From a virus: DNA of 64,000 nt. Position 1 is the first letter of the stretch. Each line of letters begins with the position of its first letter. This document shows, in pieces, positions 8,782 to 60,677 of the stretch. The position numbers and the translations under genes are program-made. The notes under the pieces were generated by a model that did not search any database, was not told where the DNA came from, and saw only the letters and a list, made by a program, of their open reading frames with translations. The DNA lies in UHGV virus genome UHGV-0033085; one strand, written 5' to 3'.

Positions 8782-8797
8782 ATTACCCTTATAGAAA

Positions 8798-10219: not shown

Positions 10220-10280
10220 TATATACAAAATATTTAATTGCTGTTAATATTTAATTGTTCAGACATAGGGAAAGCCCGAA

Positions 10281-10312: not shown

Positions 10313-10331
10313 TATGCTTCCAAGTGATGAG

Positions 10332-10706: not shown

Positions 10707-10713
10707 TGAGAGT

Positions 10714-11289
10714 TTATGAGCGTTTGTTGAGCAGATCTACAATCAGCTTTTGAGGTGTATTTTCCTCTTTTGTCTTAGGTAATCCATTCTGAGGTAGCGT
10801 CGATAGTCTGTTCTTATCTCCTCTAGGTAACTCAAGCCTTTTCTTGATCTGCACAATAAGTTCCCATAGACTGTCTTCGTTCTCAACCTTTATAGAGTAG
10901 CCTACGCCACAATATGAATCACTTTTTAAGCGATTGTGAATTTTGAACGTATTGAAGTTTGAGCTTAACTGAATATATCCAGGGGTAATACCATCTATAT
11001 TTTCGATCACAGGGAGTATTTCTTTTATCTGGAAAGGGAAAATGACCAATGAATAATCATCTCGTCTTTCCTCATTGTCTGGTGAAATTAAATAAATGTA
11101 GTAAGGGTTGTTTTTTGAATAAGATTCTCGTAATGCTGAACTCTTTCCGAAGTAGAAACCTTTAGCGTGAATTTTATCTTTCGTTTCTTTCCCCCGTTGT
11201 ATCTGAATGTTACTTTCGCTAAGTGTCCCATTTGATACATATGAAGCTTTATCCAATATCGTGTGAAGTTGTGTATTTGAAAGAGCCAT
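10714..11289 (-). CDS. hypothetical protein
   Basis: ORF track; same leftward operon. Confidence 0.5.
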   Translation of the reverse strand: MALSNTQLHTILDKASYVSNGTLSESNIQIQRGKETKDKIHAKGFYFGKSSALRESYSKNNPYYIYLISPDNEERRDDYSLVIFPFQIKEILPVIENIDGITPGYIQLSSNFNTFKIHNRLKSDSYCGVGYSIKVENEDSLWELIVQIKKRLELPRGDKNRLSTLPQNGLPKTKEENTPQKLIVDLLNKRS

Positions 11290-11433
11290 TAGCTATCCCT
11301 TCGACCAAACTCAGCGATGAAGCCTACAAATATCATTCAGCCAATCAAGAATTTTTTTCAGCCGGAGGTGTGCACTTCAAAAAATGTGATGAATGTCACA
11401 TGCAGGTGCTCTCATACACCTGCATGTAGACTA

Positions 11434-12000
11434 TTAATCATTCAATAATCTATATTTTCTTTTGATTAAATCTTCACCTTTTTTGGTGAACACAAAACCA
11501 AATTGCGATTTTTTGTTCAGCCTAAGGACTCTGTTATCCAACGCATCGGTTGATGGAATCAATGTTTGATCATCTATCCAATTTAGTAGCGTAAGAAAGT
11601 TCAACAGCCTCAACGTTGTTGTGCGAAGCTCTTTCGATATATTTTCAATGCTGGCAATTCGTCTTTCTTTTTTCTCAGGTGGTACAGATAATTGTTCTTG
11701 AGGTTTCGTGGATAGATAATCAATTTCGTTTGCAGCATCGAATGATATGTGTGGCGTTATTTTGCTAAAAAAGCCTTTCGCTGACTCACTTGATAATAAA
11801 CCAGACCTATTCATATCGTTTGTTATTCTGTACAGGAGTGGACTGTGTTTCATTTCAGGATAACGTTGATAAAAGTTAAGCAATTCAAAAGCAGCATTAG
11901 CGCCAACAAGAAAATCAGAAGGATCGCTGACTTTCCAGAAAGAATGATTTTTCTTAGCGCCAGTGGTGTCAACAAATGATAATTCTTTTAACCAACTCAT
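11434..12000 (-). CDS. hypothetical protein
   Basis: ORF track 11434..12033; ATG at 12000 has an AAGGAG RBS. Confidence 0.5.
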   Translation of the reverse strand: MSWLKELSFVDTTGAKKNHSFWKVSDPSDFLVGANAAFELLNFYQRYPEMKHSPLLYRITNDMNRSGLLSSESAKGFFSKITPHISFDAANEIDYLSTKPQEQLSVPPEKKERRIASIENISKELRTTTLRLLNFLTLLNWIDDQTLIPSTDALDNRVLRLNKKSQFGFVFTKKGEDLIKRKYRLLND

Positions 12001-12065
12001 GATGTGCTCCTTTCTAACAAGTGAGCACATCATAGAATTAGTAGATAGGGGGTAAATATGAAATG

Positions 12066-12344
12066 TTACGGCAACCTGCTCAGTATTTCCTCTAAATCTT
12101 TTTTTGTCATATTGGAGTTTTCATAGATGCGCATGATTTTCTCACGCGTCTTAGCGGAAACCCCAACGGCAGATGTGACTTTGTCAAATTCAGCCATAGT
12201 CATCGTCTCCAGAATGGCATTGATAACTTCAGCCTTAGACATCTTGATTTTTTTCTCTTTGAGTTTTATTTGAAATTTTCCAAGTTTTTCATTGGCCTTA
12301 TCAGACAATGCCACTTGGCAATAAGTTGTTTTTTTTTCGCTCAT
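12066..12344 (-). CDS. hypothetical small lysine-rich protein
   Basis: ORF track; immediately downstream of the helicase gene. Confidence 0.45.
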   Translation of the reverse strand: MSEKKTTYCQVALSDKANEKLGKFQIKLKEKKIKMSKAEVINAILETMTMAEFDKVTSAVGVSAKTREKIMRIYENSNMTKKDLEEILSRLP

Positions 12345-13970: not shown

Positions 13971-14669
13971 GTGGATTGTAGCAATAAAATGGACGTAAAA
14001 ATCACGATTTTGCAGGTTGATGTTGCCAACCTTCGCCCGAATACCTGGAACACAAATTCGGTTGGTGCGCAGAATTTTGAAAAACTGAAAGGTTCTATCG
14101 AAAAATTGGGCTTTTTTAAGCCAATTTTGGCTCGTGAACTTGAAGATGGATTTTTTGAAATCCTCGGCGGCGAACATCGCTGGCGTGCTGCTATTGAGCA
14201 AGGAATTTCAACGGTTCCGGTACTTTCTGTGGGCAAAATTAGCGATGTCGTGGCAAAACAGATGTCACTGGTGGACAACGAGCGATACGGTGAAGACGAC
14301 CAAATCGCATTGCAACGCTTCATTGAAGAAATTCAGTCAGAACTTGACTATCAACTGTCTGAAATCGCCCCGTATGACGACGAAATCTCGATGGTTTTAG
14401 CAAAAGAGGCTGCAATCGACCTTGAAGTACTGGAGGCGTTGTCTCGTGGTAGTGATGAGCCTGTCGATACCGACAAACGAGAGAAAACCGAACGTGTGGG
14501 GGCGGAACATCAGACCATGCGCTTCAAAGTAACTTTCGATGCGTCAGATCGTGTTGCAGAAACCATAAAAAACATCATCAAAGAGCAGGCTATTAACACC
14601 GGTAATGAAATGGAGAACGCTGGTGAGGCTCTGGTGTGGCTGGTCGACTACTACAAGGAGCGTATGTAA
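13971..14669 (+). CDS. ParB/Srx N-terminal domain protein
   Basis: GGEHRWRAA motif; start may be ATG 13989. Confidence 0.65.
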   Translation: MDCSNKMDVKITILQVDVANLRPNTWNTNSVGAQNFEKLKGSIEKLGFFKPILARELEDGFFEILGGEHRWRAAIEQGISTVPVLSVGKISDVVAKQMSLVDNERYGEDDQIALQRFIEEIQSELDYQLSEIAPYDDEISMVLAKEAAIDLEVLEALSRGSDEPVDTDKREKTERVGAEHQTMRFKVTFDASDRVAETIKNIIKEQAINTGNEMENAGEALVWLVDYYKERM

Positions 14670-15337
14670 TGACCAAAAAGTTTGAAATCGTATATCGCGA
14701 CCCGGCAGATCTTATTCCCTATGAGATGAATGCCAAAAAGCATGATGAACAGCAGATCAGAGATCTGGCCGCAGCCATTAAAAAGCGTGGATTTGACCAG
14801 CCAATTACGGTCGATAAGAACGACGTAATTATTACTGGCCACGGCCGCCGTGAGGCTGCAATTTTTGCTGGACTTGAGCGCGTACCGGTTATTGTTCGCG
14901 ATGATCTCAGTGATGACGAGGTTCGTGCGAAGCGCCTTGAAGATAACCGACTTGCCAGCATTGATTACGATGCAATTAAGCTACAGAAAGAGCTTGAGTC
15001 GCTTGTTCTGGACGATATCGAGGTTTTCGGCTTTGAAGAGCGTGAGTTGAATGTTCTCGTTGGCAGTATGACAGAAGAAATGGACACCGACTCGCTAGTT
15101 ATCGATCTTGGCGAAGAAACTAAACGACAGAAGGATGAACACACCGAGATCAGTCGTGAAGTTGCAGCGGAAGAAGTACGTGTTGTCGACGTATTGGGCT
15201 TTAAAACGCTCCCTGCTGGCTCTGCCATTGTTGTTGGTGATTTGCTTGCCCACATGGAAGAAATGACAGGAGAAAGCGGGGTAGACGCATTTGTGGCATA
15301 TGCGGAGAAGATCTCTTCCGGGGAGATGGCTGCATGA
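14669..15337 (+). CDS. ParB/Srx N-terminal domain protein (second copy)
   Basis: GHGRREAA motif; ATG overlaps upstream stop. Confidence 0.65.
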   Translation: MTKKFEIVYRDPADLIPYEMNAKKHDEQQIRDLAAAIKKRGFDQPITVDKNDVIITGHGRREAAIFAGLERVPVIVRDDLSDDEVRAKRLEDNRLASIDYDAIKLQKELESLVLDDIEVFGFEERELNVLVGSMTEEMDTDSLVIDLGEETKRQKDEHTEISREVAAEEVRVVDVLGFKTLPAGSAIVVGDLLAHMEEMTGESGVDAFVAYAEKISSGEMAA

Positions 15338-15972
15338 GCAAATACATCATCAACGTATCGTTTCAGACACGCGTAAATAAAACCACGCGCACGTTGGAAA
15401 TCGCTGAGTCGTTCGGGCTTGGCCTGGACGAAAAAGAGTGGACGCTTTACGACAATCTGGAGCTGGAAGTGAAGCAGGGCGATGTGGTGTACATCACCGG
15501 CCAATCCGGTTCCGGCAAATCCGTTGTGCTGCGCGAGTTGCAACGACAGATGAAGGATGAAGGGCTGTCTGTAGCCTCCATCGATGATTTTACCTTCGAT
15601 AATGAGGTTAACGTCATCGATCAGTTGGGCAAAACGACCAGTGATGCGCTTGGGTTGTTATCTATGGCTGGTCTGAACGATGCATATCTGTTTGTTCGCA
15701 AGCCTTCTGAAATGTCAGACGGTCAGAAATATCGTCTCAAGATTGCCAAACTGATTGAGTCAGGCGCTAAAGTGTGGGCTGCTGACGAGTTCGGTGCTGT
15801 TCTAGACCGTGTAACCGCTCAGGTTGTGGCATCTAACCTCCAGCGTGCCGCTCGAAAGGTTGGTGCGACGGTAATGGTGGCGACGACTCACGAAGACCTG
15901 AAGAACGCGCTGCGCCCGGATATGCAGATCACCAAGCACTACAAAGAACGCGTGAAGGTGGAATATGCCTGA
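15334..15972 (+). CDS. ABC-type ATPase domain protein
   Basis: Walker A GQSGSGKS, signature-like MSDGQKYR, Walker B VWAADEFG, H-loop ATTHE. Confidence 0.65.
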   Translation: MSKYIINVSFQTRVNKTTRTLEIAESFGLGLDEKEWTLYDNLELEVKQGDVVYITGQSGSGKSVVLRELQRQMKDEGLSVASIDDFTFDNEVNVIDQLGKTTSDALGLLSMAGLNDAYLFVRKPSEMSDGQKYRLKIAKLIESGAKVWAADEFGAVLDRVTAQVVASNLQRAARKVGATVMVATTHEDLKNALRPDMQITKHYKERVKVEYA

Positions 15973-46536: not shown

Positions 46537-47058
46537 TTATTCTTCGAACAATTTTTCGATAGATTTTGTAGGATAGAACAAAGAACGCTCGTTGTTACCA
46601 ACCAGCTGGATAAAGTCTAAACTTTTATAAAACGCCTTGGCTTTGTCATTTAACGCCTCAACGAAAAGTCCATGAATGCCTACAGCAAGAGATGCATTGT
46701 ACACAACGCGCATTGCATGTGTTACAAGCATTGAGCCAAATCCTTGACCTTGAAGGGACTTGTCCAAAGCCAGCCTACCCAAAGTAACACTTGGAACATT
46801 CCGATAAGGTACCTTCTTTTGCTGGCTTCTTGAAGGTAAGGACTCCTTTTCAAAGCAGCTACCTGACAAAGTGTAATACCCTAACACTTTTGGTCTGCCT
46901 TCTTTCGTGCAGAGCACATAAGCGCGAAGAATTTTTCCCTCATGCTGCCTTTTTAAGTGGTTGGTTAAAAAGGCATTTAGTGATTCTTCACCGCAATCAA
47001 AACCATTCAAATCATAATCTTTCTCTCCAGAGAAAATTTCTATCTTTATATTATCCAC
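46537..47058 (-). CDS. GNAT-family toxin (TacT-like)
   Basis: GNAT motifs; paired with DUF1778-like antitoxin. Confidence 0.8.
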   Translation of the reverse strand: MDNIKIEIFSGEKDYDLNGFDCGEESLNAFLTNHLKRQHEGKILRAYVLCTKEGRPKVLGYYTLSGSCFEKESLPSRSQQKKVPYRNVPSVTLGRLALDKSLQGQGFGSMLVTHAMRVVYNASLAVGIHGLFVEALNDKAKAFYKSLDFIQLVGNNERSLFYPTKSIEKLFEE

Positions 47059-47065: not shown

Positions 47066-47335
47066 CTACTCCATGCTTTTCAGACGATCAGCAGCTCGTT
47101 TCAGCTTGTCGTTCGGTGCCGGAGGATTGCTTATAGCGTCCATAACCAGATTCCAGGATTCTTCATTCAGAACTAGTCTACGGTGTTGCTCTATAACTTT
47201 CACGGCACGTTCAGATGCACTGCTAACCATAAACTGAGTAATGCTCTGGTTAGACATTGCGGCAGCTTCCTCGATGATGCTTTTATCGTCATCGGTTAAT
47301 CTCAAATCGATGCGCTGCTTTTTTAGTGCTGACAT
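47066..47335 (-). CDS. DUF1778-type antitoxin (TacA-like)
   Basis: N-terminal RIDLRLTDDDK...SITQFMVSSA motif; ORF track 47066..47374, ATG 47335 has AGGAGG RBS. Confidence 0.8.
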   Translation of the reverse strand: MSALKKQRIDLRLTDDDKSIIEEAAAMSNQSITQFMVSSASERAVKVIEQHRRLVLNEESWNLVMDAISNPPAPNDKLKRAADRLKSME

Positions 47336-47604
47336 GTATTCCTCCTGATGGCCGTGATGTAGGAAGGCCATCAATCTCCTCTGTTCAAACTGAGTTTTCG
47401 ACTCAAAAATTACTTTAAAAGGCTATAGCCCATTACGTGTGCATTATCAAATTGTGTACGGCATATCACCGTACTTGTAATATAGAGGTCATTGTTACTT
47501 TTTTCAACAGACAAATACAAGCTATGTTTGCCAATTGTTAATCACAACCTACCATTTAACCTTTACACCGCAGCCGTAGGCATTTAGGCTATATCACATA
47601 TAAG

Positions 47605-47619
47605 AAAACAAATTGTTTC
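47605..47619 (+). promoter_or_regulatory. operator palindrome AAAACAaatTGTTTC upstream of parA
   Basis: AAAACA-N3-TGTTTT family; GATAAT 5 nt downstream. Confidence 0.45.
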
Positions 47620-47653
47620 AGACGATAATTATATACGCAAAGGGAACTCTCCA

Positions 47654-48322
47654 ATGACCAAGATCTTTGTGGTTGGCGGCACAAAGGGCGGGCCTGGCAA
47701 ATCCACCGTTGCCCAGCAAATTGCCGTTTGCCTGAAAGTCAAAAAGAAGAAGAAGGTTTATATCACTGATATAGATATTCAGCGCACGACAACGAGCTGG
47801 TGTGAAGACCGTCGACAGAACGAATACCTTGAGCTGATTCCTTTTGCATACGTTCAGGATGACATCATTAAGCACCTAAAATCGCTTCAGGGTAGAGCTG
47901 AGTTTGTAGTGGTAGATGCTGGTGGCTTCGACTCCGAAATTCAGCGACAAGCGATGCTGATGGCCGACGTTATCATTATCCCGCTTCGTCCTAAGCGTCG
48001 TGATTTGAAATCTCTGCGTGACATCGATCCTATTATCGACAATGTTCGCAATGTAAACGATAAAGTGAAGGTCCGCGCGGTCATGAACCAGTGCCCGGCT
48101 TTGCCATCACAAGTGTCTCGCATTCTGGCGGCTAAAGAGATTGTTGAGACGTTTGGAATCGAGTCTGCGCCAGTCAATCTATATAACCGCAACGTCTATG
48201 ATGATGCGGAAGAGTCTGGTCGTTCTATCTTTGAAATGACCGGTAGCGAGCGCGACAAAAAGGCGGAAGCCGAGTTTGAAGAATTTGTAGATTATCTGTT
48301 GAGTCTGGAGGAAGAAGAATAA
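47654..48322 (+). CDS. parA: ParA-family partition ATPase
   Basis: Deviant Walker A GGTKGGPGKST; small type Ib-like ParA. Confidence 0.85.
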   Translation: MTKIFVVGGTKGGPGKSTVAQQIAVCLKVKKKKKVYITDIDIQRTTTSWCEDRRQNEYLELIPFAYVQDDIIKHLKSLQGRAEFVVVDAGGFDSEIQRQAMLMADVIIIPLRPKRRDLKSLRDIDPIIDNVRNVNDKVKVRAVMNQCPALPSQVSRILAAKEIVETFGIESAPVNLYNRNVYDDAEESGRSIFEMTGSERDKKAEAEFEEFVDYLLSLEEEE

Positions 48323-48681
48323 TGTCCATGAAAATGGGTGACCTAGCAAAGCGCAAAGAGCCTGATGCACCGGCTAAGAACACAACTCCTTTGCGCCAAC
48401 CAGTCAGACCACAGGGACGCCCGACTCGTGGCAAAGAGAAAATTAAAAGCCGCACAATGTCACTGGAGGACGAATACTTCGAACTGCTGGAGATGATGAA
48501 GTTCATCCCTCGCTTCGAGAAGTTCACTCGTTCTGACGTGATTCGAGCAGCCATTTTCCATCTGGCAGAGAAGTCACCGCAGGAAATCGAGGACATCGTG
48601 AAATTGAATGAGGCGATCACCGCTGCCGATGTCACGATGCGTACCGATGAAATCAAACGAGAGTTGATGAAGAAAGGTTAA
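48322..48681 (+). CDS. ParG-like partition partner (putative)
   Basis: Small basic protein coupled to parA. Confidence 0.45.
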   Translation: MSMKMGDLAKRKEPDAPAKNTTPLRQPVRPQGRPTRGKEKIKSRTMSLEDEYFELLEMMKFIPRFEKFTRSDVIRAAIFHLAEKSPQEIEDIVKLNEAITAADVTMRTDEIKRELMKKG

Positions 48682-48733
48682 AAATTATGCATTGGCGCAA
48701 TGTACGCGCCAATGCATAACTACAGTGTCAGCT

Positions 48734-49501
48734 TTATGCCGCGCTAACACTATGTTCAGTCCTAACCACCCCAACCTTCACAAAAGGGCTACCGTAGCTT
48801 GGTGGCTTCTTGATTAATTTGCCTACATACAGTTTTCTAATATGCTCATCGGCTATTCTGCCAACAAATTCATAACGTTTTGTGTCGGGGCCAAGAGCTA
48901 TATCCCTTGTAAAGTACTGCTGAGAACCGGCTTTGACCCAGCATTCAATCTGATAAACTTCCATTATCAGCCCACCATATGTAGCGTAGGCATATTTGAG
49001 ATTCTCGTCTCTTGGAACCTTTGCCCATACGCCACGCGTAGCTTCATATAATGCCAGAGCGGACATTCCTGACTTGTAGGTGCTGTTTAGCAGGAAGGCA
49101 AGACCGGCGTGCTCAGGAGCAATTTCAGTTTCCTCTTGCAGCACTAAGTGATGGTAGGCGTCCAGTGATATTCTGCCCATCATGGAACCACTTCCTCGTA
49201 CCTTATTCGTAAGCTCTCCGACCCCCATAAGGTCGATGCATGTCGCCTCAACAAGTTTGGCTGTGGTTTCATCCATACCATGACGAAGTATATCTATGCC
49301 TAATTTTTTATTAGCCAAAAGTTCTTTGATCCGCATGGATTTGGGAGAGTCATCGGGATACTTGATGTGATCGAGACAACGAGTCGATTTGCCTTTTCCT
49401 ATGTAAAACGGTCTTTTCATCTTGTCTTCTGTATCATAGAGACAGTAAACATAGTATTTAGCCTTATCCAATGATCTCGCGTATACCGATAAATCGTCCA
49501 T
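48734..49501 (-). CDS. GIY-YIG nuclease domain protein
   Basis: N-terminal YYVYCLYD...PFYIGKGK motif. Confidence 0.6.
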   Translation of the reverse strand: MDDLSVYARSLDKAKYYVYCLYDTEDKMKRPFYIGKGKSTRCLDHIKYPDDSPKSMRIKELLANKKLGIDILRHGMDETTAKLVEATCIDLMGVGELTNKVRGSGSMMGRISLDAYHHLVLQEETEIAPEHAGLAFLLNSTYKSGMSALALYEATRGVWAKVPRDENLKYAYATYGGLIMEVYQIECWVKAGSQQYFTRDIALGPDTKRYEFVGRIADEHIRKLYVGKLIKKPPSYGSPFVKVGVVRTEHSVSAA

Positions 49502-50567: not shown

Positions 50568-51908
50568 ATGACCGAACTTTGCCATACAGGACGCGGGCTG
50601 TCCGAAGAGTTTGATGAAGATTTCCAGAACAGACTGACGGCATATTTTTGTCGTGATCACGAGTTTCTTACTCGTGCGGGAGATCTGGTTGTGCCTAGCC
50701 AATTTGCCAATGCGGCCAATGCCATATTGGTTAATATGGTTTCGGGCTATTACCGTATGTACAAGAGCGCGCCCTCTTCATCTGCAATTCTTGATATGCT
50801 TAAGCGTGCGAAACGCGATAAGACTATCCGTGAGGAACTATTCGCCGATGTTGTTGCTGCGTTTAAGCGCATTCTTGCAGAAAAATTGTCCGATACCTCG
50901 TACATGGTTGACCAGGTATCAACCTTCGCAAAAAGTGTAGCGTTTGATGATGCTCTGATTAAGGCTGCTGAACTGAAAGAGAAAGGCGACTTTCAGGGGG
51001 CGATGGCAATCATGGCCAAGGTTCAGCAGATTGGATCGAACGAAGCGACCGGAATCTATGACTACTACACCTCCGCAAGTGAGCGATTGAAAGCGCGTGA
51101 ATATGAGGCTTCAGAGGAGTATGTGCCAAACAGCATTACAACTGGACTCCCTCTGCTCGATAGGTTGCTGTACCAAAAAGGCTGGGCGAAGCGTGAAATG
51201 GTGCTCTTCATGGGGTTCGCTAAATCCGGTAAATCGACTGCAATGGGTGAATTTTCCATAAACGCAACGCTTGCTGGCTACAATGTTCTGTATCTCTCGC
51301 TGGAGGTTCACACCACCATTTTATCCGACCGTTTTGATGCAAGATTGTCGGAGACAGAAATGTCCAAGCTGGTGGAACGGCGCGATGAGGTTCATCGTAA
51401 GTTGGCAGAGTTGGGAGCCACGAAGGGGATTGGTAGTTTGTGGGTGGTTGAGCGTCCGTCAGGAAGTATGTCACCGGCAGATCTGGACCGTATGCTTAAC
51501 AGCATGAAAGCCAACGGCATGGTGCCTGACATGGTTGTTGTCGACTACGCAGATTTGATGCGTGCCAGTTATGACCTTCGTGATGATCGCGCCAACATTC
51601 GTAGTATCTACACCGATTTACGTGCTCTTTATGACAAGCATAACGTTGCTGGGATCACGGCATCGCAGACAAACCGTGAAGGTGGCGCGTCAGAAGTTGC
51701 CACAATGATGCACGCCGCCGACAACATCGAAAAAGTACGTATTGCTGACCTGGTAATAACGATCAACAAAACCGAAGAAGAAGAAGCGAAAGGAGAGGCT
51801 CGTCTCTACTTTGCCGGTTCACGTAACCAGCAGGGAGGGATCAGCATTCGCGTTAAACAAAACCTCGAACAAATGCGCTTCATTGAGCGAATCTTAGACG
51901 TTACCTAA
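50568..51908 (+). CDS. DnaB-like helicase (RecA-fold ATPase)
   Basis: Walker A GFAKSGKST, Walker B VVVDYADLM; upstream of primase. Confidence 0.7.
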   Translation: MTELCHTGRGLSEEFDEDFQNRLTAYFCRDHEFLTRAGDLVVPSQFANAANAILVNMVSGYYRMYKSAPSSSAILDMLKRAKRDKTIREELFADVVAAFKRILAEKLSDTSYMVDQVSTFAKSVAFDDALIKAAELKEKGDFQGAMAIMAKVQQIGSNEATGIYDYYTSASERLKAREYEASEEYVPNSITTGLPLLDRLLYQKGWAKREMVLFMGFAKSGKSTAMGEFSINATLAGYNVLYLSLEVHTTILSDRFDARLSETEMSKLVERRDEVHRKLAELGATKGIGSLWVVERPSGSMSPADLDRMLNSMKANGMVPDMVVVDYADLMRASYDLRDDRANIRSIYTDLRALYDKHNVAGITASQTNREGGASEVATMMHAADNIEKVRIADLVITINKTEEEEAKGEARLYFAGSRNQQGGISIRVKQNLEQMRFIERILDVT

Positions 51909-51914
51909 AAAATA

Positions 51915-51937
51915 AGCGTGGAGAACACCTCCACGCT
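51915..51937 (+). terminator. hairpin AGCGTGGAG-aacac-CTCCACGCT (attenuator or terminator)
   Basis: Perfect 9-bp stem after helicase stop, weak U-run. Confidence 0.4.
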
Positions 51938-51989
51938 TGATTCATTGGTGAAACAACTTTTCTTTTGCCAAACCACAAAAGAAAAACAC

Positions 51990-53171
51990 ATGAGCCTTTA
52001 TGTTATATCAACATTTAGGTTGGTCACAATATTGCCTGTTAAAAGTGGAATTATCGTGAGCGAGCTGAAAGAGCTAATTACCGAATTAGATTTTGAACAA
52101 TGGTTGGATACTGAAGGTATCGTTTATCGACGTGGAGGCGTGAGTACTCGCGGTCGTGAAGTGAATATCAAGGAGTGTCCGGTATGCGGCAGCTCCAACT
52201 GGAAGGTATATTTCAATCTGACCAGTGGCGTCGGTAAATGCTTCGCTGGTGATCATCCCGAAGAGATTCAGTTCAATAAGCTGGTCTTCCTCAAGCACTA
52301 CAGCGGCAAATCACGACGACAGTTCGAGGAATATGTGCAGAACGCCCTTCTTTCCCAGGGGTGGGCACCAAAGAAAGAAGAGCTAGTGCTTGCAAGCACA
52401 GTCGAGTTAGAGGGGCCAGTTGCACTCCCTCGTCATTACGAGCTTCCTATAGATGGCCGTCTTCCAGACTATCTGGTTGAACGAAACATATCGCCTGAAA
52501 TGGCAAAGTATTTTGACCTACGATACTGCGTCGAAGGCAAGCACGCCTATGTAGATCCGTATACAGATCAGGTTAAAGGACAGATATTCGATATGCGAAT
52601 ACTGATACCGGTTTACGATCTGGATGGGGTAATGAAGACATTTCAGGGACGAGACATTACCGGTACAGCTGAACGTCGCTACCTCTTTCCTATGCAGCTT
52701 CCAGCTTCAGGTAAGTTTCTCTACAACGGCCATAATGCGGTCGGCAAACAGACTGTAGTTGTCTGTGAGGGGGCGTTCGATGTTATGGGGGTTAAACGAG
52801 CTATTTTTGATGAAGAAACATTACGTGATTACGTGGAACCGATAGGAACGTTCGGGATGCATCTATCTGGTAACACCACTCAGGATGCAGAAGATCAGTT
52901 AGGCGCGTTCCTGACGCTCAAGGCGCGTGGGTTACGTAATGTGATCATGATGTGGGATAGTGAAAAGCAAGCTATACGCAACACTATGGCCGCAGCCAGG
53001 CGACTGACCAGTATCGGTCTTAATGTCAAAGTTGCGTGTTTGGGGGAGGAAGGACTCGACCCGGGCGGTGCAACGCCAGAACAAATTATCAAAGCCTATT
53101 ATCGGGCAAAACCGTATACCAAACAGTTGGAGTTGCAAAGCAAGGTTTTGGGCATTAAGGCTATATCGTAA
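51990..53171 (+). CDS. DNA primase (zinc-ribbon plus TOPRIM)
   Basis: CPVCGSSNW...C zinc ribbon and VVVCEGAFDVMGV motif; ORF track start 51918 lies inside the hairpin, so ATG 51990 is preferred. Confidence 0.7.
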   Translation: MSLYVISTFRLVTILPVKSGIIVSELKELITELDFEQWLDTEGIVYRRGGVSTRGREVNIKECPVCGSSNWKVYFNLTSGVGKCFAGDHPEEIQFNKLVFLKHYSGKSRRQFEEYVQNALLSQGWAPKKEELVLASTVELEGPVALPRHYELPIDGRLPDYLVERNISPEMAKYFDLRYCVEGKHAYVDPYTDQVKGQIFDMRILIPVYDLDGVMKTFQGRDITGTAERRYLFPMQLPASGKFLYNGHNAVGKQTVVVCEGAFDVMGVKRAIFDEETLRDYVEPIGTFGMHLSGNTTQDAEDQLGAFLTLKARGLRNVIMMWDSEKQAIRNTMAAARRLTSIGLNVKVACLGEEGLDPGGATPEQIIKAYYRAKPYTKQLELQSKVLGIKAIS

Positions 53172-53185
53172 CAAGTGCCGCCAAA

Positions 53186-53206
53186 ATAAGTAGATGATTA
53201 CTTATC
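53186..53206. promoter_or_regulatory. TAAGTA box, palindrome ATAAGTAGATGATTACTTATC
   Basis: Palindromic family member 40 nt upstream of ATG 53247. Confidence 0.4.
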
Positions 53207-53246
53207 TTTCTGTAAGAATACTTTCATCTGTTAGCTAGGAGTTGGT

Positions 53247-54023
53247 ATGAAAGACGAAATTCACAAATTAGCCTGCGACATCATTGATAAAACTGGTTTA
53301 GAAATCAGCGAGAGCAATCGACTAGACATCATTGAAAAAGCGGTAAAAACAGCAATGGATCATATCGCCACTCGTTTGGTTGAGATCCCGCTACCAGGGC
53401 TACCTTATCTGAAAGTTGAGTTACACGTATGGGGTGAACCTTCTTGTGCACGACGTTCTGCATTAGTTGTTTTTATTAGCAAAGAAAACCCGCTCAGTCT
53501 TAAAGTGCAGGTTGGAGCATGGCTTGATGGCAGAGTGATCTACACAAATACCGTTTTTTGTCTTTCAAACGACGAAACTATTGAAGCGGCCATTCAAGAA
53601 GCAGTTCTAGCAATGCGCAGCAGCGGTTTGATGAAGAATAACTACGAAGAGTACTTGCGTTCGATAAGTGGTGAAAAGACATTATCTCTGAAAGCAGATT
53701 TCGTTACCCCGAAAAATCTGTTGGAAGTCTTGCTTAATAAAGGGGCTAATGATGCCGTAAATGTAATCAGAGAGAGTGAGTATGCGTCTCTTTGCGACAT
53801 GTGCAAAAGCCAGTTGGATCTGGTGCATATCGTTATTGATGCTGGGAAGGCATGTGATGGCGTAATGGCGGAATTTGCTTGGAAGGTGGTCAGGATTGCT
53901 AACGAATTACCGATGATAGAGCAAGAGGCTAAATCATACGCCACCAATCATATCACAGAGCTTCTTGCCCCCTATCGCTTAGAAAGCAATCAGCGCAAGA
54001 TGATTAGCTGGGGAAGTTGGTAA
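53247..54023 (+). CDS. hypothetical protein
   Basis: ORF with GGAG RBS. Confidence 0.5.
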   Translation: MKDEIHKLACDIIDKTGLEISESNRLDIIEKAVKTAMDHIATRLVEIPLPGLPYLKVELHVWGEPSCARRSALVVFISKENPLSLKVQVGAWLDGRVIYTNTVFCLSNDETIEAAIQEAVLAMRSSGLMKNNYEEYLRSISGEKTLSLKADFVTPKNLLEVLLNKGANDAVNVIRESEYASLCDMCKSQLDLVHIVIDAGKACDGVMAEFAWKVVRIANELPMIEQEAKSYATNHITELLAPYRLESNQRKMISWGSW

Positions 54024-54055
54024 TCTCTCCGCGCGTCGTTTTTTACGCAAATAAC

Positions 54056-54067
54056 GATAGGTAAGTA
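54056..54067 (+). promoter_or_regulatory. TAAGTA box (GATAGGTAAGTA)
   Basis: Family member 12 nt upstream of ATG 54079. Confidence 0.4.
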
Positions 54068-54078
54068 CAAGATTATTT

Positions 54079-54561
54079 ATGGCGGTAGTTGTGAAAGCTG
54101 ATTTGTCAAAAATCCCCTCTATTTCAGGAAATAATGGTTATTCACTTCGTTGTGAGGAAGTAAAGATAAACGGTGAGTCGGCATATTGCAGCTACTCCGT
54201 TTGCCAGCACACCATTCTTGCCTTCAAAGAAAACCGTCTTCCTCGAACTTCATTCCAGTCGTGCGCAACCGCTATCAAAGCAGGCAAATGCAAGGCGTTA
54301 AAAATGATGGTTGAAGAGATTCGTAAAGGAGAATCTCTGTATTTCGAAGATATGACCGCGCTCATTAAGGAGGTTGAAGAACAGAATAAACAAGCCAGAA
54401 CTTTAAAACGAAAACGTGACAGTGTAACGATTAATAGCATGGTTAAGAAGAGCACCACATCACAAACAGCGATCACTGACGTGTATGCGGCGTTGCTTGA
54501 AGAAACAACAAAAGAAACACATGAGCAAATCGATCAACATATGGAGGTAAAACAACAATGA
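54079..54561 (+). CDS. hypothetical protein
   Basis: ORF track. Confidence 0.5.
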   Translation: MAVVVKADLSKIPSISGNNGYSLRCEEVKINGESAYCSYSVCQHTILAFKENRLPRTSFQSCATAIKAGKCKALKMMVEEIRKGESLYFEDMTALIKEVEEQNKQARTLKRKRDSVTINSMVKKSTTSQTAITDVYAALLEETTKETHEQIDQHMEVKQQ

Positions 54562-55880
54562 AAAAGTTGATCGCACTTAAGCATAAGCTGGACGAAATGA
54601 AAGCTATGGGCACCAATGCAAAAAAAGAGGCATTGGCCAACATGGATGACTTTGAACAAAGCATGGTTTCATTGATGCTCAACCCTTTCATCCGTTTTGG
54701 GGTAAAGAAATACAAAGTGGCAGAGCCGCTTAGTGAGTCCATCCCAAGTGACGAAAAAGCCATTGATGTACTGAATAAGCTGGCCTCTCGCGAGCTAACG
54801 GGGAACGCAGCAATAGCAGCTGTTGAGTCTATCGTGGCGTCAATGTGCGCCGATGGGCAGGACGTGTTCCGTCGTTTCCTCTTAAAAGACCCGAAAGCTG
54901 GCGTTGGGATTAGCCTATGCAACAAGGTTTTTGAAAATCCCATTCCGAAATTCGAGGTGCAGCTGGCGTCACCGTATAAAGAAAAAGGCGACAAATACCC
55001 CTTCAAGCCAAATCCTAAAGCAAAATGGCCGATGATTGGCAGTCTTAAGCTCGATGGTTTGCGAGTAATTTGCGAGGTTATTGTTGACGAGGAAGAGGTT
55101 AACTTCCTTTCTCGTACTGGTAATCCAATCACGTCTCTCGATCACCTAAAGCCAGCCATGCTCGAATTAGGCAAACTTTCAGGCCACAAACACATCTTCT
55201 TCGATGGTGAAGGAACTGCCGGTTCATTTAACCAGTCCGTATCTGCATTGCGCAAAAAGAACGTGCAGGCAATTGGCGCTATTTATCATGTTTTCGACTT
55301 CTTCCTACCGGAATGGCGAGCACAGGCTAAATCCAAAGAGTATGCAAAGACAGGTATGAAGCTGAAAGAGCGCCTGGCTATGCTGGTGGCGTTGTTCAAA
55401 AACGATCGCAGTGAAGGCTACACACAAGACATTCACCTGCATCCGTTCTATATCATCCATAGCCACGAAGACTTCATCGAACGCTTCATGAAACGCCTGG
55501 ACGATAACGAAGAAGGGGAGATGGGCAAAGATCCGAACTCTGTTTACGAGTTTAAACGTACCCGCAGCTGGTGGAAGTTAAAAGACGAAGATTCAGAAGA
55601 TGGTGAAATTATCGACTTTGAGCCGGGCGACCCGGACTCTGGTTTTGCCAACACACTTGGAAAAATTGTTATTCGTCTTGAAAACGGCGTCATCGTTCGT
55701 GCGAGCGGCATTAAGCATAAATATCTGGATGAGATCTGGAACAACAAAGAGAAGTACCGTGGTCGTATTGTCGAGGTTCATTGTCACGAGAAAACACCGG
55801 ACGGCAGCTTACGCCACCCACGACTGAAATGGCCGCGTTGCTTACGCGATACAGAAGATCGAATCGGAGATAAAGAATGA
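54558..55880 (+). CDS. ATP-dependent DNA ligase
   Basis: Adenylation motif I KLDGLR in GSLKLDGLRVICEV. Confidence 0.8.
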   Translation: MKKLIALKHKLDEMKAMGTNAKKEALANMDDFEQSMVSLMLNPFIRFGVKKYKVAEPLSESIPSDEKAIDVLNKLASRELTGNAAIAAVESIVASMCADGQDVFRRFLLKDPKAGVGISLCNKVFENPIPKFEVQLASPYKEKGDKYPFKPNPKAKWPMIGSLKLDGLRVICEVIVDEEEVNFLSRTGNPITSLDHLKPAMLELGKLSGHKHIFFDGEGTAGSFNQSVSALRKKNVQAIGAIYHVFDFFLPEWRAQAKSKEYAKTGMKLKERLAMLVALFKNDRSEGYTQDIHLHPFYIIHSHEDFIERFMKRLDDNEEGEMGKDPNSVYEFKRTRSWWKLKDEDSEDGEIIDFEPGDPDSGFANTLGKIVIRLENGVIVRASGIKHKYLDEIWNNKEKYRGRIVEVHCHEKTPDGSLRHPRLKWPRCLRDTEDRIGDKE

Positions 55881-57469: not shown

Positions 57470-57544
57470 GATGGTGTAGCTCAGCGGTAGAGCAGTTGGC
57501 TGTTAACCAACTGGTCGGTGGTTCGAATCCACCCACCATCGCCA
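57470..57544 (+). tRNA. tRNA-Asn (anticodon GTT)
   Basis: Cloverleaf folded by hand: 7-bp acceptor, GCTC/GAGC D-stem, GTTGG/CCAAC anticodon stem, loop CTGTTAA, TTCGAAT T-loop, encoded CCA. Confidence 0.85.
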
Positions 57545-57549
57545 ATTTA

Positions 57550-57636
57550 GGGGAGTTAGTCCGTAGAGGTAGCGGTGTAGACTGTAAATCTACTGTCATG
57601 GCGACTCGGGTGGTTCGACTCCATCACTCCCCACCA
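57550..57636 (+). tRNA. tRNA-Tyr (anticodon GTA), type II
   Basis: Acceptor GGGGAGT/ACTCCCC, anticodon stem GTAGA/TCTAC with loop CTGTAAA, long variable arm, TTCGACT T-loop, encoded CCA. Confidence 0.8.
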
Positions 57637-57640
57637 AATT

Positions 57641-57716
57641 GCCGGTTTAGCTCAGTTGGTAGAGCGCCTGCCTTGTAAGCAGGATGTCAGCGGTTCGAGT
57701 CCGTTAACCGGCACCA
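57641..57716 (+). tRNA. tRNA-Thr (anticodon TGT)
   Basis: Acceptor GCCGGTT/AACCGGC, GCTC/GAGC D-stem, anticodon stem CCTGC/GCAGG with loop CTTGTAA, TTCGAGT T-loop, CCA. Confidence 0.85.
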
Positions 57717-57717
57717 A

Positions 57718-57806
57718 CACAACAGGTAAGTGCATTGGGCGAATCGGCGATACTGACCCACAAGCCCGTAAATCGATAGAGTCAGACCAGTGCTCTTACC
57801 GTTGTG
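57718..57806 (+). repeat. long stem-loop element C (CACAACAGGTAAG ... CTTACCGTTGTG)
   Basis: 12-bp arms around about 64 nt, immediately after tRNA-Thr. Confidence 0.55.
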
Positions 57807-57857
57807 AGGAAGTGCAGCTCTTTGAGGCAACCAGAAGATAAGCATCTGGCTTCACAA

Positions 57858-57936
57858 CACAACGATAAGATCATTACGGTTAATCGTCGTTCATGTGCAC
57901 AATGACTGGTCGAAAGGTAGTGATCTTACCGTTGTG
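57858..57936 (+). repeat. long stem-loop element D (CACAACGATAAGA ... TCTTACCGTTGTG)
   Basis: 13-bp arms with one mismatch around about 53 nt. Confidence 0.55.
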
Positions 57937-58080
57937 GTGGATTCGCAGACTGATGCGATAGCTTTCTTGGATGTTAGGGAAATGCGGCCGCAAATCTTCC
58001 CTTTCGCGAGCGGTGATCGTCCGTAGTCCTAATTGGCTGCACCGTATGCCGGAGATTCAGTACCGGCCACCACAACGGCC

Positions 58081-58167
58081 GGAGAGTAGGGAGCATGGTG
58101 CTCAAGCGGTCTTGAAAACCGTCCCATTGCGCAAGCGATGATGGTTCGATTCCATTACTCTCCGCCA
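58081..58167 (+). tRNA. tRNA-Ser (anticodon TGA), type II
   Basis: Acceptor GGAGAGT/ACTCTCC, anticodon stem GCGGT/ACCGT with loop CTTGAAA, 17-nt variable arm, TTCGATT T-loop, discriminator G, CCA. Confidence 0.8.
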
Positions 58168-59061: not shown

Positions 59062-59094
59062 AATGATTCCATACCTACTATGTATGGAATCATT
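59062..59094. repeat. inverted repeat AATGATTCCATAC-ctactat-GTATGGAATCATT upstream of integrase
   Basis: Perfect 13-bp arms; left arm is one of three direct copies of ATGATTCCATAC (56252, 57264, 59063). Confidence 0.6.
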
Positions 59095-59192: not shown

Positions 59193-60296
59193 ATGAAAAA
59201 TAGCTTTGACAGAGCACGCGCTGCGGAGAACACCTCAAAAGAGGCGATTGAGTATCTCGAAAGAGCATCTCAAATGCAGGCCGTTATGATCTCCCAGGTC
59301 AGCAATGACATGAGATTCTCGGACGCATTCATGTTATTCACTCGCTTATCTCTGCTGATAACAAGACGTCGGCCAGAGATCGCTGTTCATTGTATTTTGA
59401 TACATGTTTTGCCGCACATTGCCGATGTAAAAGTAAGTGACATTAATAGGTTCATGGTGAACCAACTGGTCAACCCACTAATACTGGATGGCAAAATTGT
59501 TATGGGCCGCCGCGTTTTCTCTCTGATGAAGCAGTTCCTTAGCTGGTGCGCCTTCCAGGGGATGATAGACGTGTCACCGTTAAACGATATGTCACTTAAC
59601 AAAGTTGCCGGTGGCGCAAAGCCCACACCTCGCGAGCGGAAGCTGACCGACGCAGAGGTATGGGTGTTCTGGAATATATGGGACTACTTCAATGTGTGCG
59701 CTGGTACAAAATGGGCGGCCAGGCTGTGTCTTGTATCCGCAAGACGACCTGACGAAGTACTGCGTGCTAAAAAAAGTGAGTTCAATCTTAAGCGTGGGGT
59801 TTGGAATCAAGGCAAGAGGAACAAATCTGCCCGTGAGCATTCGCTGCCTTTAAGCACATTAATGCGCACATGTATTGAAGAGTTGTTCGAATACGGTAAA
59901 GGCAGCCAGTGGCTCGTGCCTTCGAATAAAAAAATCGGGAAAGACCTTCCTATGTCTAAAGTGGCAATAGCCCAGGCATTACGTCGTATTCTGGAACGAC
60001 CAGAACTGATGGAGCTTGAGCCATTTACACCCCGAGACTTGCGCCGTACTGCGCGTAGTTACTTCCCAGCATTAGACATAAGCCAGGAGGTATCACGCAA
60101 AATCATGAACCACAGTCTTGAGGGGATAGATCGAGTCTACGACCGGCACGATTATATGGACGAGATGCGAGACGCCTTAGAAAGTTTCTCGACGTACATC
60201 GCATCAATCGTAGAGCAACCGGATTTAGACGAAATTGACCACAAATTCAAGGGAGATCGTCTATCAACAGAGCTTATTCGTGTAAATTTTTCATAG
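59193..60296 (+). CDS. tyrosine recombinase / phage integrase
   Basis: Conserved LVSARRPDEV, TPRDLRRTA and VYDRHDYMDE blocks consistent with the R..H-x-x-R..Y catalytic signature. Confidence 0.8.
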   Translation: MKNSFDRARAAENTSKEAIEYLERASQMQAVMISQVSNDMRFSDAFMLFTRLSLLITRRRPEIAVHCILIHVLPHIADVKVSDINRFMVNQLVNPLILDGKIVMGRRVFSLMKQFLSWCAFQGMIDVSPLNDMSLNKVAGGAKPTPRERKLTDAEVWVFWNIWDYFNVCAGTKWAARLCLVSARRPDEVLRAKKSEFNLKRGVWNQGKRNKSAREHSLPLSTLMRTCIEELFEYGKGSQWLVPSNKKIGKDLPMSKVAIAQALRRILERPELMELEPFTPRDLRRTARSYFPALDISQEVSRKIMNHSLEGIDRVYDRHDYMDEMRDALESFSTYIASIVEQPDLDEIDHKFKGDRLSTELIRVNFS

Positions 60297-60677
60297 AGAC
60301 TTTATGGCCTCAACAACCTTTTGTGATGCGCCTTTCTCTTTACCGAATCGCTCGTTATATGCAGCAAGAACCTGTTTTTCGTCCTCGTTAAGAGGAGCGG
60401 TGCCTTCTTTGTATAAAAATGCTGCGAGTTCAGGTTGGCGTTCTTCCAGCACCATCATCATAAGACGACTTGGCTCAATACCCAGCGCCAGCGCCAACGG
60501 ACGAACCTTATCGATAGGCAAAGGAATTTTGCCACTTTTAATTAAAGAAAGGTTGTTGGCATTTTTATAACCAATAAGTCTGGCTATTTGGGCCTGACTC
60601 ATAGGTGAGGATTCAATCAGCCCTGCGATAAAAGCAGCATAGCGACTTTCTATAAATTCAATCTTGTTGTCAGACAT
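60291..60677 (-). CDS. XRE-family helix-turn-helix regulator
   Basis: HTH segment MSQAQIARLIGYKNANNLSLIKSGK; convergent with integrase. Confidence 0.7.
   Translation of the reverse strand: MSDNKIEFIESRYAAFIAGLIESSPMSQAQIARLIGYKNANNLSLIKSGKIPLPIDKVRPLALALGIEPSRLMMMVLEERQPELAAFLYKEGTAPLNEDEKQVLAAYNERFGKEKGASQKVVEAIKSL

Follow-up and report, generated by a model that had tools for sequence, protein, structure and literature searches.

A predicted type Ib partition cassette and an element-wide operator in a probable SSU5-type phage-plasmid of Escherichia coli and Shigella

Phage-plasmids of the SSU5 type are common in clinical Escherichia coli, Shigella, Salmonella and Klebsiella, and their cargo includes, for example, metG, dfrA51 and toxin-antitoxin modules. 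SSU5, pHCM2, pLF82/Cyrano, CMS-2020a, pWPMR2, the Klebsiella pKpn-type elements and pMT1 form a supergroup with a shared gene order of lysis genes, par, the helicase, primase and ligase genes, tRNAs and a recombinase gene. Among these elements, pMT1 stands apart in that a P1-type ParAB replaces the small-ParA par module of the other members. Virions have been reported for SSU5 (PMC7969092), and Cyrano both makes virions and is maintained at about 5.5 copies per cell (PMC9928086).

The stretch of DNA analyzed here, 64,000 nucleotides of the UHGV virus genome UHGV-0033085 (hereafter the window), represents the same type of element. It differs from the described members only in accessory cassettes, namely a toxin-antitoxin pair, a GIY-YIG gene and variable blocks at 4.5-6, 8.8-12.1 and 42.2-42.8 kb. 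The window is 98% identical to phage Cyrano/pLF82, and it is collinear with the circular 110-kb E. coli plasmid p4_0.2 over 58 of its 64 kb, at 95-98% identity. The par region is 98-99% identical to circular E. coli plasmids of about 110 kb and to the phages Cyrano, CMS-2020a and PhiR41_1, and the par block retains 86% identity to SSU5 and 80% to the Klebsiella members. A first-pass annotation, made from the letters alone, had guessed at an SSU5-type phage-plasmid and proposed a comparison with known phage-plasmid genomes; the collinearity with p4_0.2 and the par identities to SSU5 and to the E. coli members bear out this guess. The element belongs to the E. coli/Shigella lineage, alongside pLF82-Cyrano, p4_0.2 and the pWPMR2-like elements, and, judging from the annotations of its relatives, its structural and lysis gene set is complete. 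It is thus an ordinary and previously described kind of element, a well-known E. coli/Shigella phage type that lives as a plasmid. The whole is probably best explained as an internal 64-kb piece of an SSU5-supergroup phage-plasmid, with the partition, adaptor, operator and recombinase roles proposed below. As the phage-plasmid lifestyle is already established, its confirmation for this window adds little in itself.

One alternative is that the window derives from an integrated prophage or a chimeric contig, in which metG would be host chromosome and the tyrosine recombinase a true integrase. The first-pass annotation had raised this possibility after reading the start of the window as a chromosomal-looking metG. 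The recombinase is indeed a member of the phage integrase family, and the metG segment, the 3' part of the gene at positions 49-861 (plus strand), shares 90-95% identity with chromosomal E. coli metG. However, the segment is 97% identical to plasmid metG, which exceeds its identity to any chromosome, and metG sits together with apbC inside more than 200 circular plasmids. These include p4_0.2, whose collinearity with the window runs across the supposed metG junction. Pfam identifies the gene, this plasmid identity marks it as a phage-plasmid-borne copy, and carriage of metG and apbC is a feature of pWPMR2-like phage-plasmids (PMC12452169; bioRxiv 10.1101/2025.09.12.675607), with phage-plasmid-borne metG already published (Tam et al., as cited in PMC12452169). 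Furthermore, a survey of 5,426 complete E. coli genomes gave 265 copies of the par block (about 5% of the genomes), all 265 of them plasmid-borne and none chromosomal, and the lox-like site described below has no chromosomal location either. Since the par block is always found on plasmids and metG is carried by such plasmids, integration and chimerism are rejected as extremely improbable. These counts from relatives uphold the plasmid-prophage lifestyle that was first suggested, and during lysogeny the element would be kept as a low-copy circular plasmid.

The replication module attributed to the element at the outset is also present. The replication block (50568-55880, plus strand) encodes a DnaB-like helicase (50568-51908), a primase (51918-53171) and a DNA ligase (54558-55880), all on the plus strand and with two unknown ORFs between the primase and ligase genes. 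These assignments follow the annotations of Cyrano and p4_0.2, which place the plasmid initiator RepB (IncFIB) outside the window.

The tyrosine integrase noted earlier corresponds to an ORF at 59193-60296 (plus strand), whose product of 367 amino acids matches PF00589 (E 5e-9) and the phrog_1 integrase family (E 1.5e-45) and is conserved across the SSU5 supergroup, pMT1 included. Located 100 nt upstream of the gene is a lox-like candidate site, AATGATTCCATAC-CTACTAT-GTATGGAATCATT (59062-59094), with perfect 13-bp inverted arms around a 7-bp spacer (13+7+13). When four diverged elements are compared, the arms are invariant, and sequence variation in pMT1, pJN2-26 and CMS-2020a affects the spacer and flanks. 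In E. coli genomes, the site is found on plasmids only, with 252 genomes carrying it and no chromosomal occurrence. Because the site is never found on chromosomes, its distribution favors multimer resolution, the other role that had been offered for the recombinase, over chromosomal integration. The enzyme would act on the adjacent site to resolve multimers and, by analogy with Cre/loxP of P1, may also circularize incoming genomes. The lox-like site would thereby account for the presence of a tyrosine recombinase in a phage-plasmid that "should lack integrases".

Next to par is the toxin-antitoxin pair that the first-pass annotation had recognized. The toxin (46537-47058, minus strand) is a GNAT-fold tRNA-acetylating enzyme of the AtaT/KacT type, identified by Pfam GNAT matches and by PDB matches to AtaT (6gts, E 8e-79; 6ajm, E about 1e-78) and KacT (5xun, E 1e-73). 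The antitoxin (47066-47374, minus strand) is of the TacA/AtaR/KacA type (DUF1778; PF08681, E 8.6e-26), for which the PGAP annotation of relatives uses a start equivalent to position 47335. The two genes form one minus-strand operon, with the antitoxin gene upstream and 7 nt between them. The pair is present at 45 of 99 related loci and is an accessory neighbor of par, which may serve as an addiction or defense module.

The par locus itself, at 47548-48681, is on sequence grounds a compact and self-contained type Ib partition cassette of 1.13 kb with sharp boundaries. Its first gene, parA (47654-48322, plus strand), encodes a small type Ib (ParF-like) deviant Walker A partition ATPase of 222 amino acids, in agreement with the initial reading. 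The N-terminus, MTKIFVVGGTKGGPGKST, contains the deviant Walker A motif KGGxxK[ST] at residues 11-18; by direct reading of the translation, this is K11-G-G-P-G-K16-S-T, with the motif beginning at residue 8-11. The length falls within the range of small ParAs (about 190-310 amino acids), and the N-terminal regulatory HTH domain of type Ia is absent. The best solved relative is ParF of TP228 (4dzz; also 5u1g), with E 2e-10 over residues 9-199, and the protein also matches phrog_164 (ParA-like partition protein, E 1e-50). A further match (E 3e-33), spanning the full length of the protein, is to the 203-position NCBIfam model NF041546, "ParA family partition ATPase"; its score of 115 bits lies below the equivalog cut-off of 180. 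This full-length match leaves no room for an extra domain.

The ParA and its partner could instead position or regulate something other than a segregating plasmid, in a MipZ-like or defense-related role, since Pfam reports a MipZ match (E 1.5e-13), some PGAP records read "division plane positioning ATPase MipZ" and a centromere array was not found. However, the similarity to MipZ is limited to the P-loop region (residues 4-56); the matches to ParF and NF041546 run over the full length. The module is also confined to low-copy plasmid-state elements that have no other partition system, and in pMT1, where the module is missing, the P1-type ParAB constitutes a functional replacement. Such a role is therefore highly improbable, and plasmid segregation is the preferred function of the pair.

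In type Ib systems, small ParF-like ParAs use small downstream adaptors. The corresponding gene here (48322-48681, plus strand; start possibly at 48328 or 48334) encodes a protein of 119 amino acids, a putative centromere-binding adaptor. Its ORF and the parA stop share one base (TAATG), and a Shine-Dalgarno sequence, GGAGGA, lies at 48307-48312, in agreement with the coupled small partner reported initially. This coupling is seen in 98 of 99 related loci, and the gene adjoins parA even in relatives with 35% identity from Morganella, Xenorhabdus and Photorhabdus. In the protein, a conserved MGDLAKR peptide at the N-terminus is followed by a disordered basic linker rich in Pro and Arg and by a helical C-terminal domain with the motif SRTMS.EDE...RSDVIRAA, in which the SRT.S.E and RSDV.RA blocks are invariant in the family alignment. 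In the AlphaFold2 model, residues 1-45 are disordered and are followed by four helices with pLDDT 80-92.

The partner belongs to PHROG 5111 ("unknown function"), and when 1.84 billion representatives were searched exhaustively with an HMM, only 18 cluster representatives were recovered, all from one narrow family. By this sequence sampling, it is an uncharacterized, lineage-restricted orphan family. Comparisons by sequence, profile and fold gave no significant match to ParG, omega or any solved structure. When 12 members of the partner family were searched, the ParG family of Pfam (PF09274) gave no match even at E 10, and hhalign against ParG returned a probability of 0.1%. A weak, sub-threshold match was obtained to the ribbon-helix-helix family aCcr1 (E 2.3e-4). 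The C-terminal domain is probably a dimeric ribbon-helix-helix fold; given the lack of significant matches to ParG, omega and solved structures, this assignment rests on the motif and the one sub-threshold match. The earlier description of the protein as "ParG-like" is thus apt for its layout and architecture, which also resemble those of omega, and does not extend to its sequence or fold.

In the record of phage Cyrano, the 119-residue ORF is annotated as "RelE/ParE putative toxin". This label was set aside, as Pfam and NCBIfam gave no match of that kind and the model is disordered and all-helical. A related proposal is that the ORF is unrelated to partition, for instance as a RelE/ParE-type toxin in keeping with the Cyrano record, and that ParA works instead with one of two proteins with ParB/Srx N-domains encoded at 13971-15337. 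Both of these proteins strongly match "ParB-like partition protein" PHROGs, and PGAP calls one of them a "ParB/RepB/Spo0J family partition protein". However, the genes lie 32 kb away, next to the terminase operon, and the pair is kept with its ABC ATPase in pMT1, which has no small ParA, indicating that it is not tied to the small ParA. Small downstream adaptors are, moreover, usual for ParF-like ParAs, and the 119-residue ORF is the one translationally coupled to parA across the related loci. It has no ParE or RelE match in Pfam even at E 10, and its product is predicted to be half disordered and otherwise all-helical. It is therefore very doubtful that the ParB/Srx proteins serve this ParA. 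With the coupled ORF as the adaptor, the partition adaptor is an unannotated orphan family that has been mis-annotated in one record.

Upstream of parA, a strongly constrained non-coding core of 78 nt (47548-47625, plus strand) contains the promoter, a candidate binding site and a palindrome. It is identical to SSU5 and to Klebsiella pJN2-26 at 76 of 78 positions (97%), whereas third-codon positions of parA in the same comparison are only 51-63% identical. The left border of the core is sharp, with many unrelated left flanks among 53 distinct upstream contexts. The sigma-70 promoter of par is placed at 47562-47590 (plus strand), with TTTACA (47562-47567), a 17-nt spacer and TAGGCT (47585-47590), which aligns with TTGACC-17-TACCAT in a relative, L011; another possible reading is TAGGCA/16 nt/TATAAG. 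A consensus promoter scan did not return this promoter, whose -10 box matches at only 3 of 6 positions, and the call is thus one we infer from reading the sequence. Within the same interval, TAGGCA (47577-47582) and TAGGCT (47585-47590) lie 8 nt apart and constitute a candidate autoregulatory or centromere site.

The first-pass annotation had suggested identifying the centromere repeats to which the partner would bind. The two TAGGC boxes provide a candidate; searches for direct, inverted and tandem repeats around the operon revealed no iterated centromere. By BLAST, a 66-nt core was single-copy in the window and in p4_0.2, an Rfam scan of the window returned tRNAs only, and a literature search for experimental work on the par locus or its operator found none. 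The centromere-like features present are therefore the two TAGGC boxes, one palindrome and the 78-nt core. Relatives in which the partner is about 50% identical (L007, L011 and L020) show no conservation with one another upstream of the palindrome, which weakens the assignment of a centromere to that stretch. A downstream centromere was rejected, as conservation among relatives ends exactly at the stop codon of the partner gene. A perfect 14-nt inverted repeat at 48685-48719 was likewise rejected as a par site, as it is part of the variable GIY-YIG cassette that Cyrano, SSU5 and pJN2-26 all lack.

The palindrome, AAACAA-N-TTGTTT (here AAACAA-A-TTGTTT, 47606-47618), lies at approximately +10 to +22 from the presumed transcription start. 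No other element upstream of parA is conserved throughout the enterobacterial lineages, some of which have partners of only 50% identity. It occurs 13 times in the window (allowing one mismatch), in comparison to 0.17 expected and a maximum of one in 100 shuffles, and these sites are located at promoters. The other copies start at 946, 997, 1883, 3068, 3553, 4456, 4507, 6205, 17510, 17535, 50536 and 61207. The operator is thus shared, as had been stated at first. However, it is not a hallmark of partition, as it is genome-wide and persists in pMT1 without the par module.

This distribution bears on whether the partner combines centromere binding with global regulation, the dispersed palindromes acting as both centromeres and operators, as modeled on the SopB sites of N15, the KorB operators of RK2 and the omega sites of pSM19035. 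The 13 copies at promoters, the conservation of the palindrome alone upstream of parA even with partners of 50% identity, the invariance of the putative DNA-reading residues SRTMS across those enterobacterial lineages and the lack of other repeat arrays found near the operon are all consistent with such a dual role. However, homologs of ParA and the partner are both missing from pMT1, in which the palindrome is nevertheless retained at six homologous promoters with diverged flanks, and relatives in the Morganellaceae keep ParA and the partner with no palindrome in their 6-kb loci. In addition, a palindrome with arms of 6-8 bp is more typical of a helix-turn-helix dimer. The dual role is therefore unlikely. 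Decidedly unlikely as well is the idea that the partner founds a new ParA-adaptor family without an iterated centromere, which uses at least 13 genome-wide palindromes as dispersed centromere and operator sites. Were it true, segregation would be directly coupled to control of the early, replication and packaging operons of the phage, as a type Ib analog of KorB and of SopB in N15.

As the shared operator persists in pMT1 without the partner, the partner is probably not the protein that binds the palindrome, and a private operator of the partner is disfavored for the same reason. The preferred reading is that the palindrome in the 5' leader of par would be a separate input, an operator for an element-wide regulator that has at least 13 such sites, and it is proposed that this regulator controls par together with the operons for replication and packaging and the small early operons. 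The dispersed operator defines a regulon, and one candidate binder of the palindrome is the product of the ORF at 60291-60677, which has a weak HTH.

With the palindrome assigned to a separate regulator, partition itself may proceed as follows. ParA would dimerize with ATP and bind the nucleoid, as its relatives do, and the partner would be its co-translated adaptor. The C-terminal domain of the partner is envisaged to bind a site within the 78-nt core upstream of the operon, and the bound site would provide both autoregulation and the centromere, the exact position of which is a matter of prediction. The flexible basic N-terminal tail, with its MGDLAKR-type peptide, may contact ParA and stimulate its ATPase, and this stimulation would drive segregation of the diffusion-ratchet type. 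The 78-nt cis region would in addition be a natural target for incompatibility-based curing.

Among described partition systems, ParF-ParG-parH of TP228 provides a close parallel. Both systems have a small ParA without an N-terminal domain, ParF being the best solved relative, and, encoded downstream of it, a small adaptor whose compact C-terminal domain is preceded by a disordered N-terminal tail. A cis site upstream of the operon, overlapping the promoter, is expected in both. The boxes of parH have an 8-bp periodicity, which the recurrence of the TAGGC boxes at 8 bp recalls. However, neither sequence nor profile comparison detected any similarity between the partner and ParG, and the partner is longer and, in the model, has two extra C-terminal helices. 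In addition, a multi-box array comparable to parH was not seen near the operon, nor were arrays like parS of pSM19035 or parC of pB171.

The delta-omega system of pSM19035, IncC-KorB of RK2 and SopAB of N15, whose partition proteins double as global regulators with dispersed sites, share with this locus a partition operon headed by an operator common to many promoters of the replicon. However, the operator here persists without the partner in pMT1, and the likeness is one of layout only. The toxin-antitoxin pair is an ordinary member of the AtaRT/KacAT/TacAT systems, from which nothing notable distinguishes it. The P1 phage-plasmid presents the same triad of active partition, a tyrosine recombinase with a simple site and an addiction toxin-antitoxin, and Cre/loxP in particular shares with the recombinase described here a site of 13-bp inverted arms beside its gene. 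However, all three parts of P1 (ParAB, Cre/loxP and Phd/Doc) are unrelated in sequence to their counterparts in this element: where P1 has a type Ia ParA, an 8-bp spacer and the Doc toxin, the element described here has a type Ib ParA, a 7-bp spacer and a GNAT toxin.

The 3.2 kb around the par operon are 98-99% identical to circular E. coli plasmids of ~110 kb and similarly close to the phages CMS-2020a, Cyrano and PhiR41_1, and 703 of the 737 plasmid records matching this region are typed as non-mobilizable. By local BLAST, the window is collinear throughout with the 110-kb E. coli plasmid p4_0.2 (NZ_CP023851.1; positions 78,782 to 16,968, descending), with 58 of 64 kb matching at 95-98% and just a few replaced cassettes breaking the match. 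Among the genes of this plasmid are a complete set for siphovirus structure and lysis and those for a RepB (IncFIB) initiator, DNA polymerase III alpha and RecA. The likeness to SSU5-type phage-plasmids, which the first-pass annotation had suggested, was borne out by comparison with phage and plasmid genomes, the block of parA and its partner gene being 86% identical to that of Salmonella phage SSU5 and ~80% identical to those of Klebsiella phage-plasmids. SSU5-like elements form the largest recognised phage-plasmid supergroup (PMC7969092), and Cyrano, which is pLF82 of E. coli LF82, produces virions and has a copy number of ~5.5 per cell (PMC9928086). A block absent from p4_0.2 (8796-12095) holds a minus-strand ORF (8798-9316) matching 'Repressor of phase-1 flagellin' (FljA-like, PF03614; E 7e-69), which may be a moron modulating host motility. 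An intergenic perfect tandem repeat, 3.4 copies of GCGCGATACTTT with 100% matches, lies at 7741-7781.

The window opens in the 3' part of metG (49-861), which had been noted as chromosomal-looking. The first 3 kb find full-length matches at ~97% on more than 180 plasmids, whereas chromosomal metG is just 90-95% identical to this copy, and p4_0.2 holds metG together with its chromosomal neighbour apbC internally. Judged by these identities, metG is plasmid-borne and evidently not a host junction. Carriage of metG by a phage-plasmid has precedent in pWPMR2 of Shigella sonnei and E. coli, to which PMC12452169 refers and which bioRxiv 10.1101/2025.09.12.675607 also treats. A survey of 5,426 complete E. 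coli genomes placed the block of parA and partner at 265 sites in 264 genomes, all on plasmid records and none chromosomal. Thus the integrated state that had been considered for this element, chromosomal residence between attL and attR repeats, is seen in no relative.

The par operon begins with parA (47654-48322, plus strand), encoding 222 residues with the N-terminus MTKIFVVGGTKGGPGKST, so that in translation the deviant Walker A box (KGGxxK[ST]) sits nearly at the N-terminus. Among solved structures, plasmid TP228 ParF (4dzz/5u1g; E 2e-10, residues 9-199 aligned) comes closest. ParA matches the NCBIfam model NF041546 'ParA family partition ATPase' along its whole length, at E 3e-33 but under the strict equivalog cut-off, and also PHROG 164 'ParA-like partition protein', while its matches to Pfam MipZ, AAA_31 and CbiA cover mainly the P-loop. 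The partner ORF (48322-48681, plus strand; 119 aa) is preceded by a GGAGGA Shine-Dalgarno sequence and shares a single base with the stop codon of parA (TAATG). The operon thereby has the ATPase features and the gene layout of type Ib systems. Upstream, on the opposite strand, lie genes for an AtaT/KacT-type GNAT toxin (46537-47058; PDB 6gts E 8e-79, 5xun E 1e-73) and a TacA/DUF1778 antitoxin (47066-47374; PF08681 E 8.6e-26), a pair found in 45 of 99 loci. Downstream follow a minus-strand GIY-YIG gene, an ORF of unknown function, and genes for a DnaB-like helicase, primase and ligase. The small ParA with its deviant Walker A box, the coupled partner, the adjacent toxin-antitoxin pair and the replication module are therefore all present as first annotated. 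Toxins of the AtaT family acetylate charged initiator Met-tRNA, and the element has, besides this toxin gene, a further gene for methionyl-tRNA synthetase (metG).

The partner, a putative ParA adaptor, is not a member of the ParG family to which it had been likened. A Pfam search assigned it no family, and it falls in PHROG 5111 ('unknown function'). A word-indexed search recovered just 25 homologues, and an exhaustive HMM search against 1.84 billion cluster representatives just 18; every one adjoins a ParA on a contig of phage-plasmid size, among them Morganella, Photorhabdus and Xenorhabdus relatives that are 35-42% identical. In alignments, a conserved N-terminal peptide, MGDLAKR/K (GLGGL or FGGLGKK in distant members), is followed by a variable acidic stretch, an invariant basic Pro/Arg segment (RPQGRPTRGK), the motif I-K/R-S-R-T-x-S-x-E-D/E-E and, after ~20 residues, F/L-T/S-R-S-D-V-I-R-A-A. 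The better AlphaFold2 run leaves residues 1-45 disordered and predicts helices at 48-59, 70-82, 86-97 and 101-118 (pLDDT 80-92). The label 'RelE/ParE putative toxin' on the Cyrano copy (CYRAN_29, 9923-10282 of locus L001) seems mistaken; elsewhere the protein is recorded as hypothetical, and the SSU5 record gives a truncated start.

Alignment of the window with Cyrano, an 87%-identical E. coli plasmid, SSU5 and the Klebsiella relative pJN2-26 revealed a nearly invariant stretch upstream of parA that starts at 47548. Its 78-nt core (47548-47625) is identical at 76 of 78 positions with SSU5 and pJN2-26, compared with merely 51-63% identity at parA third codon positions. The left border of the core is sharp, with 53 distinct upstream contexts among 98 related loci, and the abutting sequences, which include the toxin-antitoxin module and a terminator hairpin, are wholly different. 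On the right, conservation among relatives stops exactly at the partner stop codon. Together these two edges mark the par module as a discrete cassette of 1.13 kb, flanked on either side by hot-spots for insertion of accessory genes. In the window, a LEM-3-like GIY-YIG nuclease gene (48682-49501, minus strand), which comes with a perfect inverted repeat of 14 nt (48685-48719), takes the place of other genes directly after this stop codon; the codon is TAA in the window, and relatives without the GIY-YIG cassette have TGA. Present in 30 of 99 related loci, this gene may be a mobile homing-type cassette.

Within the core, TTTACA (47562-47567) and TAGGCT (47585-47590), 17 nt apart on the plus strand, can be read as a putative par promoter. 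A consensus scan did not call it, and in a divergent relative the aligned sequence is TTGACC-17-TACCAT. The invariant spacer of the putative promoter holds two copies, 8 nt apart, of the rare pentamer TAGGC (19 copies in 64 kb), a pair that recurs at identical spacing in a lineage of 61-68% identity; in a lineage of ~50% identity the spacer stretch is not conserved. Repeat searches around the operon found no centromere repeat array typical of type Ib, and the spacer region is the best candidate for a binding site of the partner.

The palindrome AAACAA-N-TTGTTT at 47606-47618 is the sole upstream element kept across all enterobacterial lineages, with more symmetric forms in relatives (GAAAACAA-N-TTGTTTTC or GAAAACA-NNN-TGTTTTC). 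It is indeed shared, as first annotated, but is not par-specific. With up to one mismatch, the window holds 13 copies (0.17 expected; maximum of 1 in 100 shuffles), starting at 946, 997, 1883, 3068, 3553, 4456, 4507, 6205, 17510, 17535, 47606, 50536 and 61207, and p4_0.2 holds 17 in 100 kb. Many (e.g., 997, 3068, 4507 and 6205) lie ~13 nt 3' of a GATAAT-like -10 hexamer, and most have a start codon 20-70 nt downstream. Operons with such a site include those of small ORFs that follow metG and that of the terminase (17510/17535), as well as those of parA, the helicase (50536) and a CobT-like gene (61207), and two pairs 51 nt apart (946/997 and 4456/4507) each bracket a promoter. In a rival reading, the partner itself would bind the palindrome, in the manner of KorB, omega or N15. 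This has low probability: in the Yersinia pestis plasmid pMT1, tblastn found neither the small ParA nor the partner, a P1-type ParAB standing in their place, and the palindrome persists at six homologous promoters although their flanks have diverged; conversely, at the loci examined in Morganellaceae, ParA and partner are kept and the palindrome is absent. The preferred reading is therefore that the palindrome is the operator of an element-wide regulator that also controls par, and not the par centromere. Two paralogous ParB/Srx-N-domain proteins, encoded with an ABC-type ATPase beside the terminase operon (13971-15972), are likewise kept in pMT1, which rules them out as dedicated partners of the small ParA. 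A minus-strand ORF overlapping the 3' end of the recombinase gene (60291-60677; 128 aa) has a weak HTH_19 match (E 0.0015) and stays recombinase-adjacent in p4_0.2 and pMT1; its product is a candidate for the regulator binding the dispersed palindrome.

[quoted passage not shown] Four tRNA genes (Asn-GTT, Tyr-GTA, Thr-TGT and Ser-TGA; 57470-58167) lie between the ligase block and this gene. About 100 nt upstream of it is a 33-bp lox-like site (59062-59094), AATGATTCCATAC-CTACTAT-GTATGGAATCATT, with perfect 13-bp inverted arms and an asymmetric 7-bp spacer. The arms are invariant in pMT1, pJN2-26 and a second CMS-2020a isolate, where the spacers read CTATTAA, CTACCAA and CTAAAGA and the flanks are unrelated. 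Fixed arms with a drifting spacer fit sites that always recombine with copies of themselves, as in a plasmid dimer, rather than an attP matching a fixed attB. This anatomy favours a Cre/loxP-like role in resolving multimers, with circularisation of infecting genomes as a further possibility. Chromosomal integration finds no support in relatives, as the site occurs in 252 E. coli genomes on plasmids alone and has no match on E. coli chromosomes even at E 10.

Published work and databases already cover the element and its lifestyle, as well as its ParA and the metG it carries. The adaptor family, the 78-nt core, the lox-like site and the dispersed operator, for none of which a description was found in the literature searched, are incremental additions. 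By analogy, the par operon may work like type Ib systems such as TP228 ParFGH or pSM19035 delta/omega; ParF of TP228 is the best solved relative of its ParA, but the partner lies outside the ParG family. The element would also share with P1 the functional triad of active partition, a putative simple-site tyrosine recombinase and an addiction module, although all three components are unrelated to those of P1.
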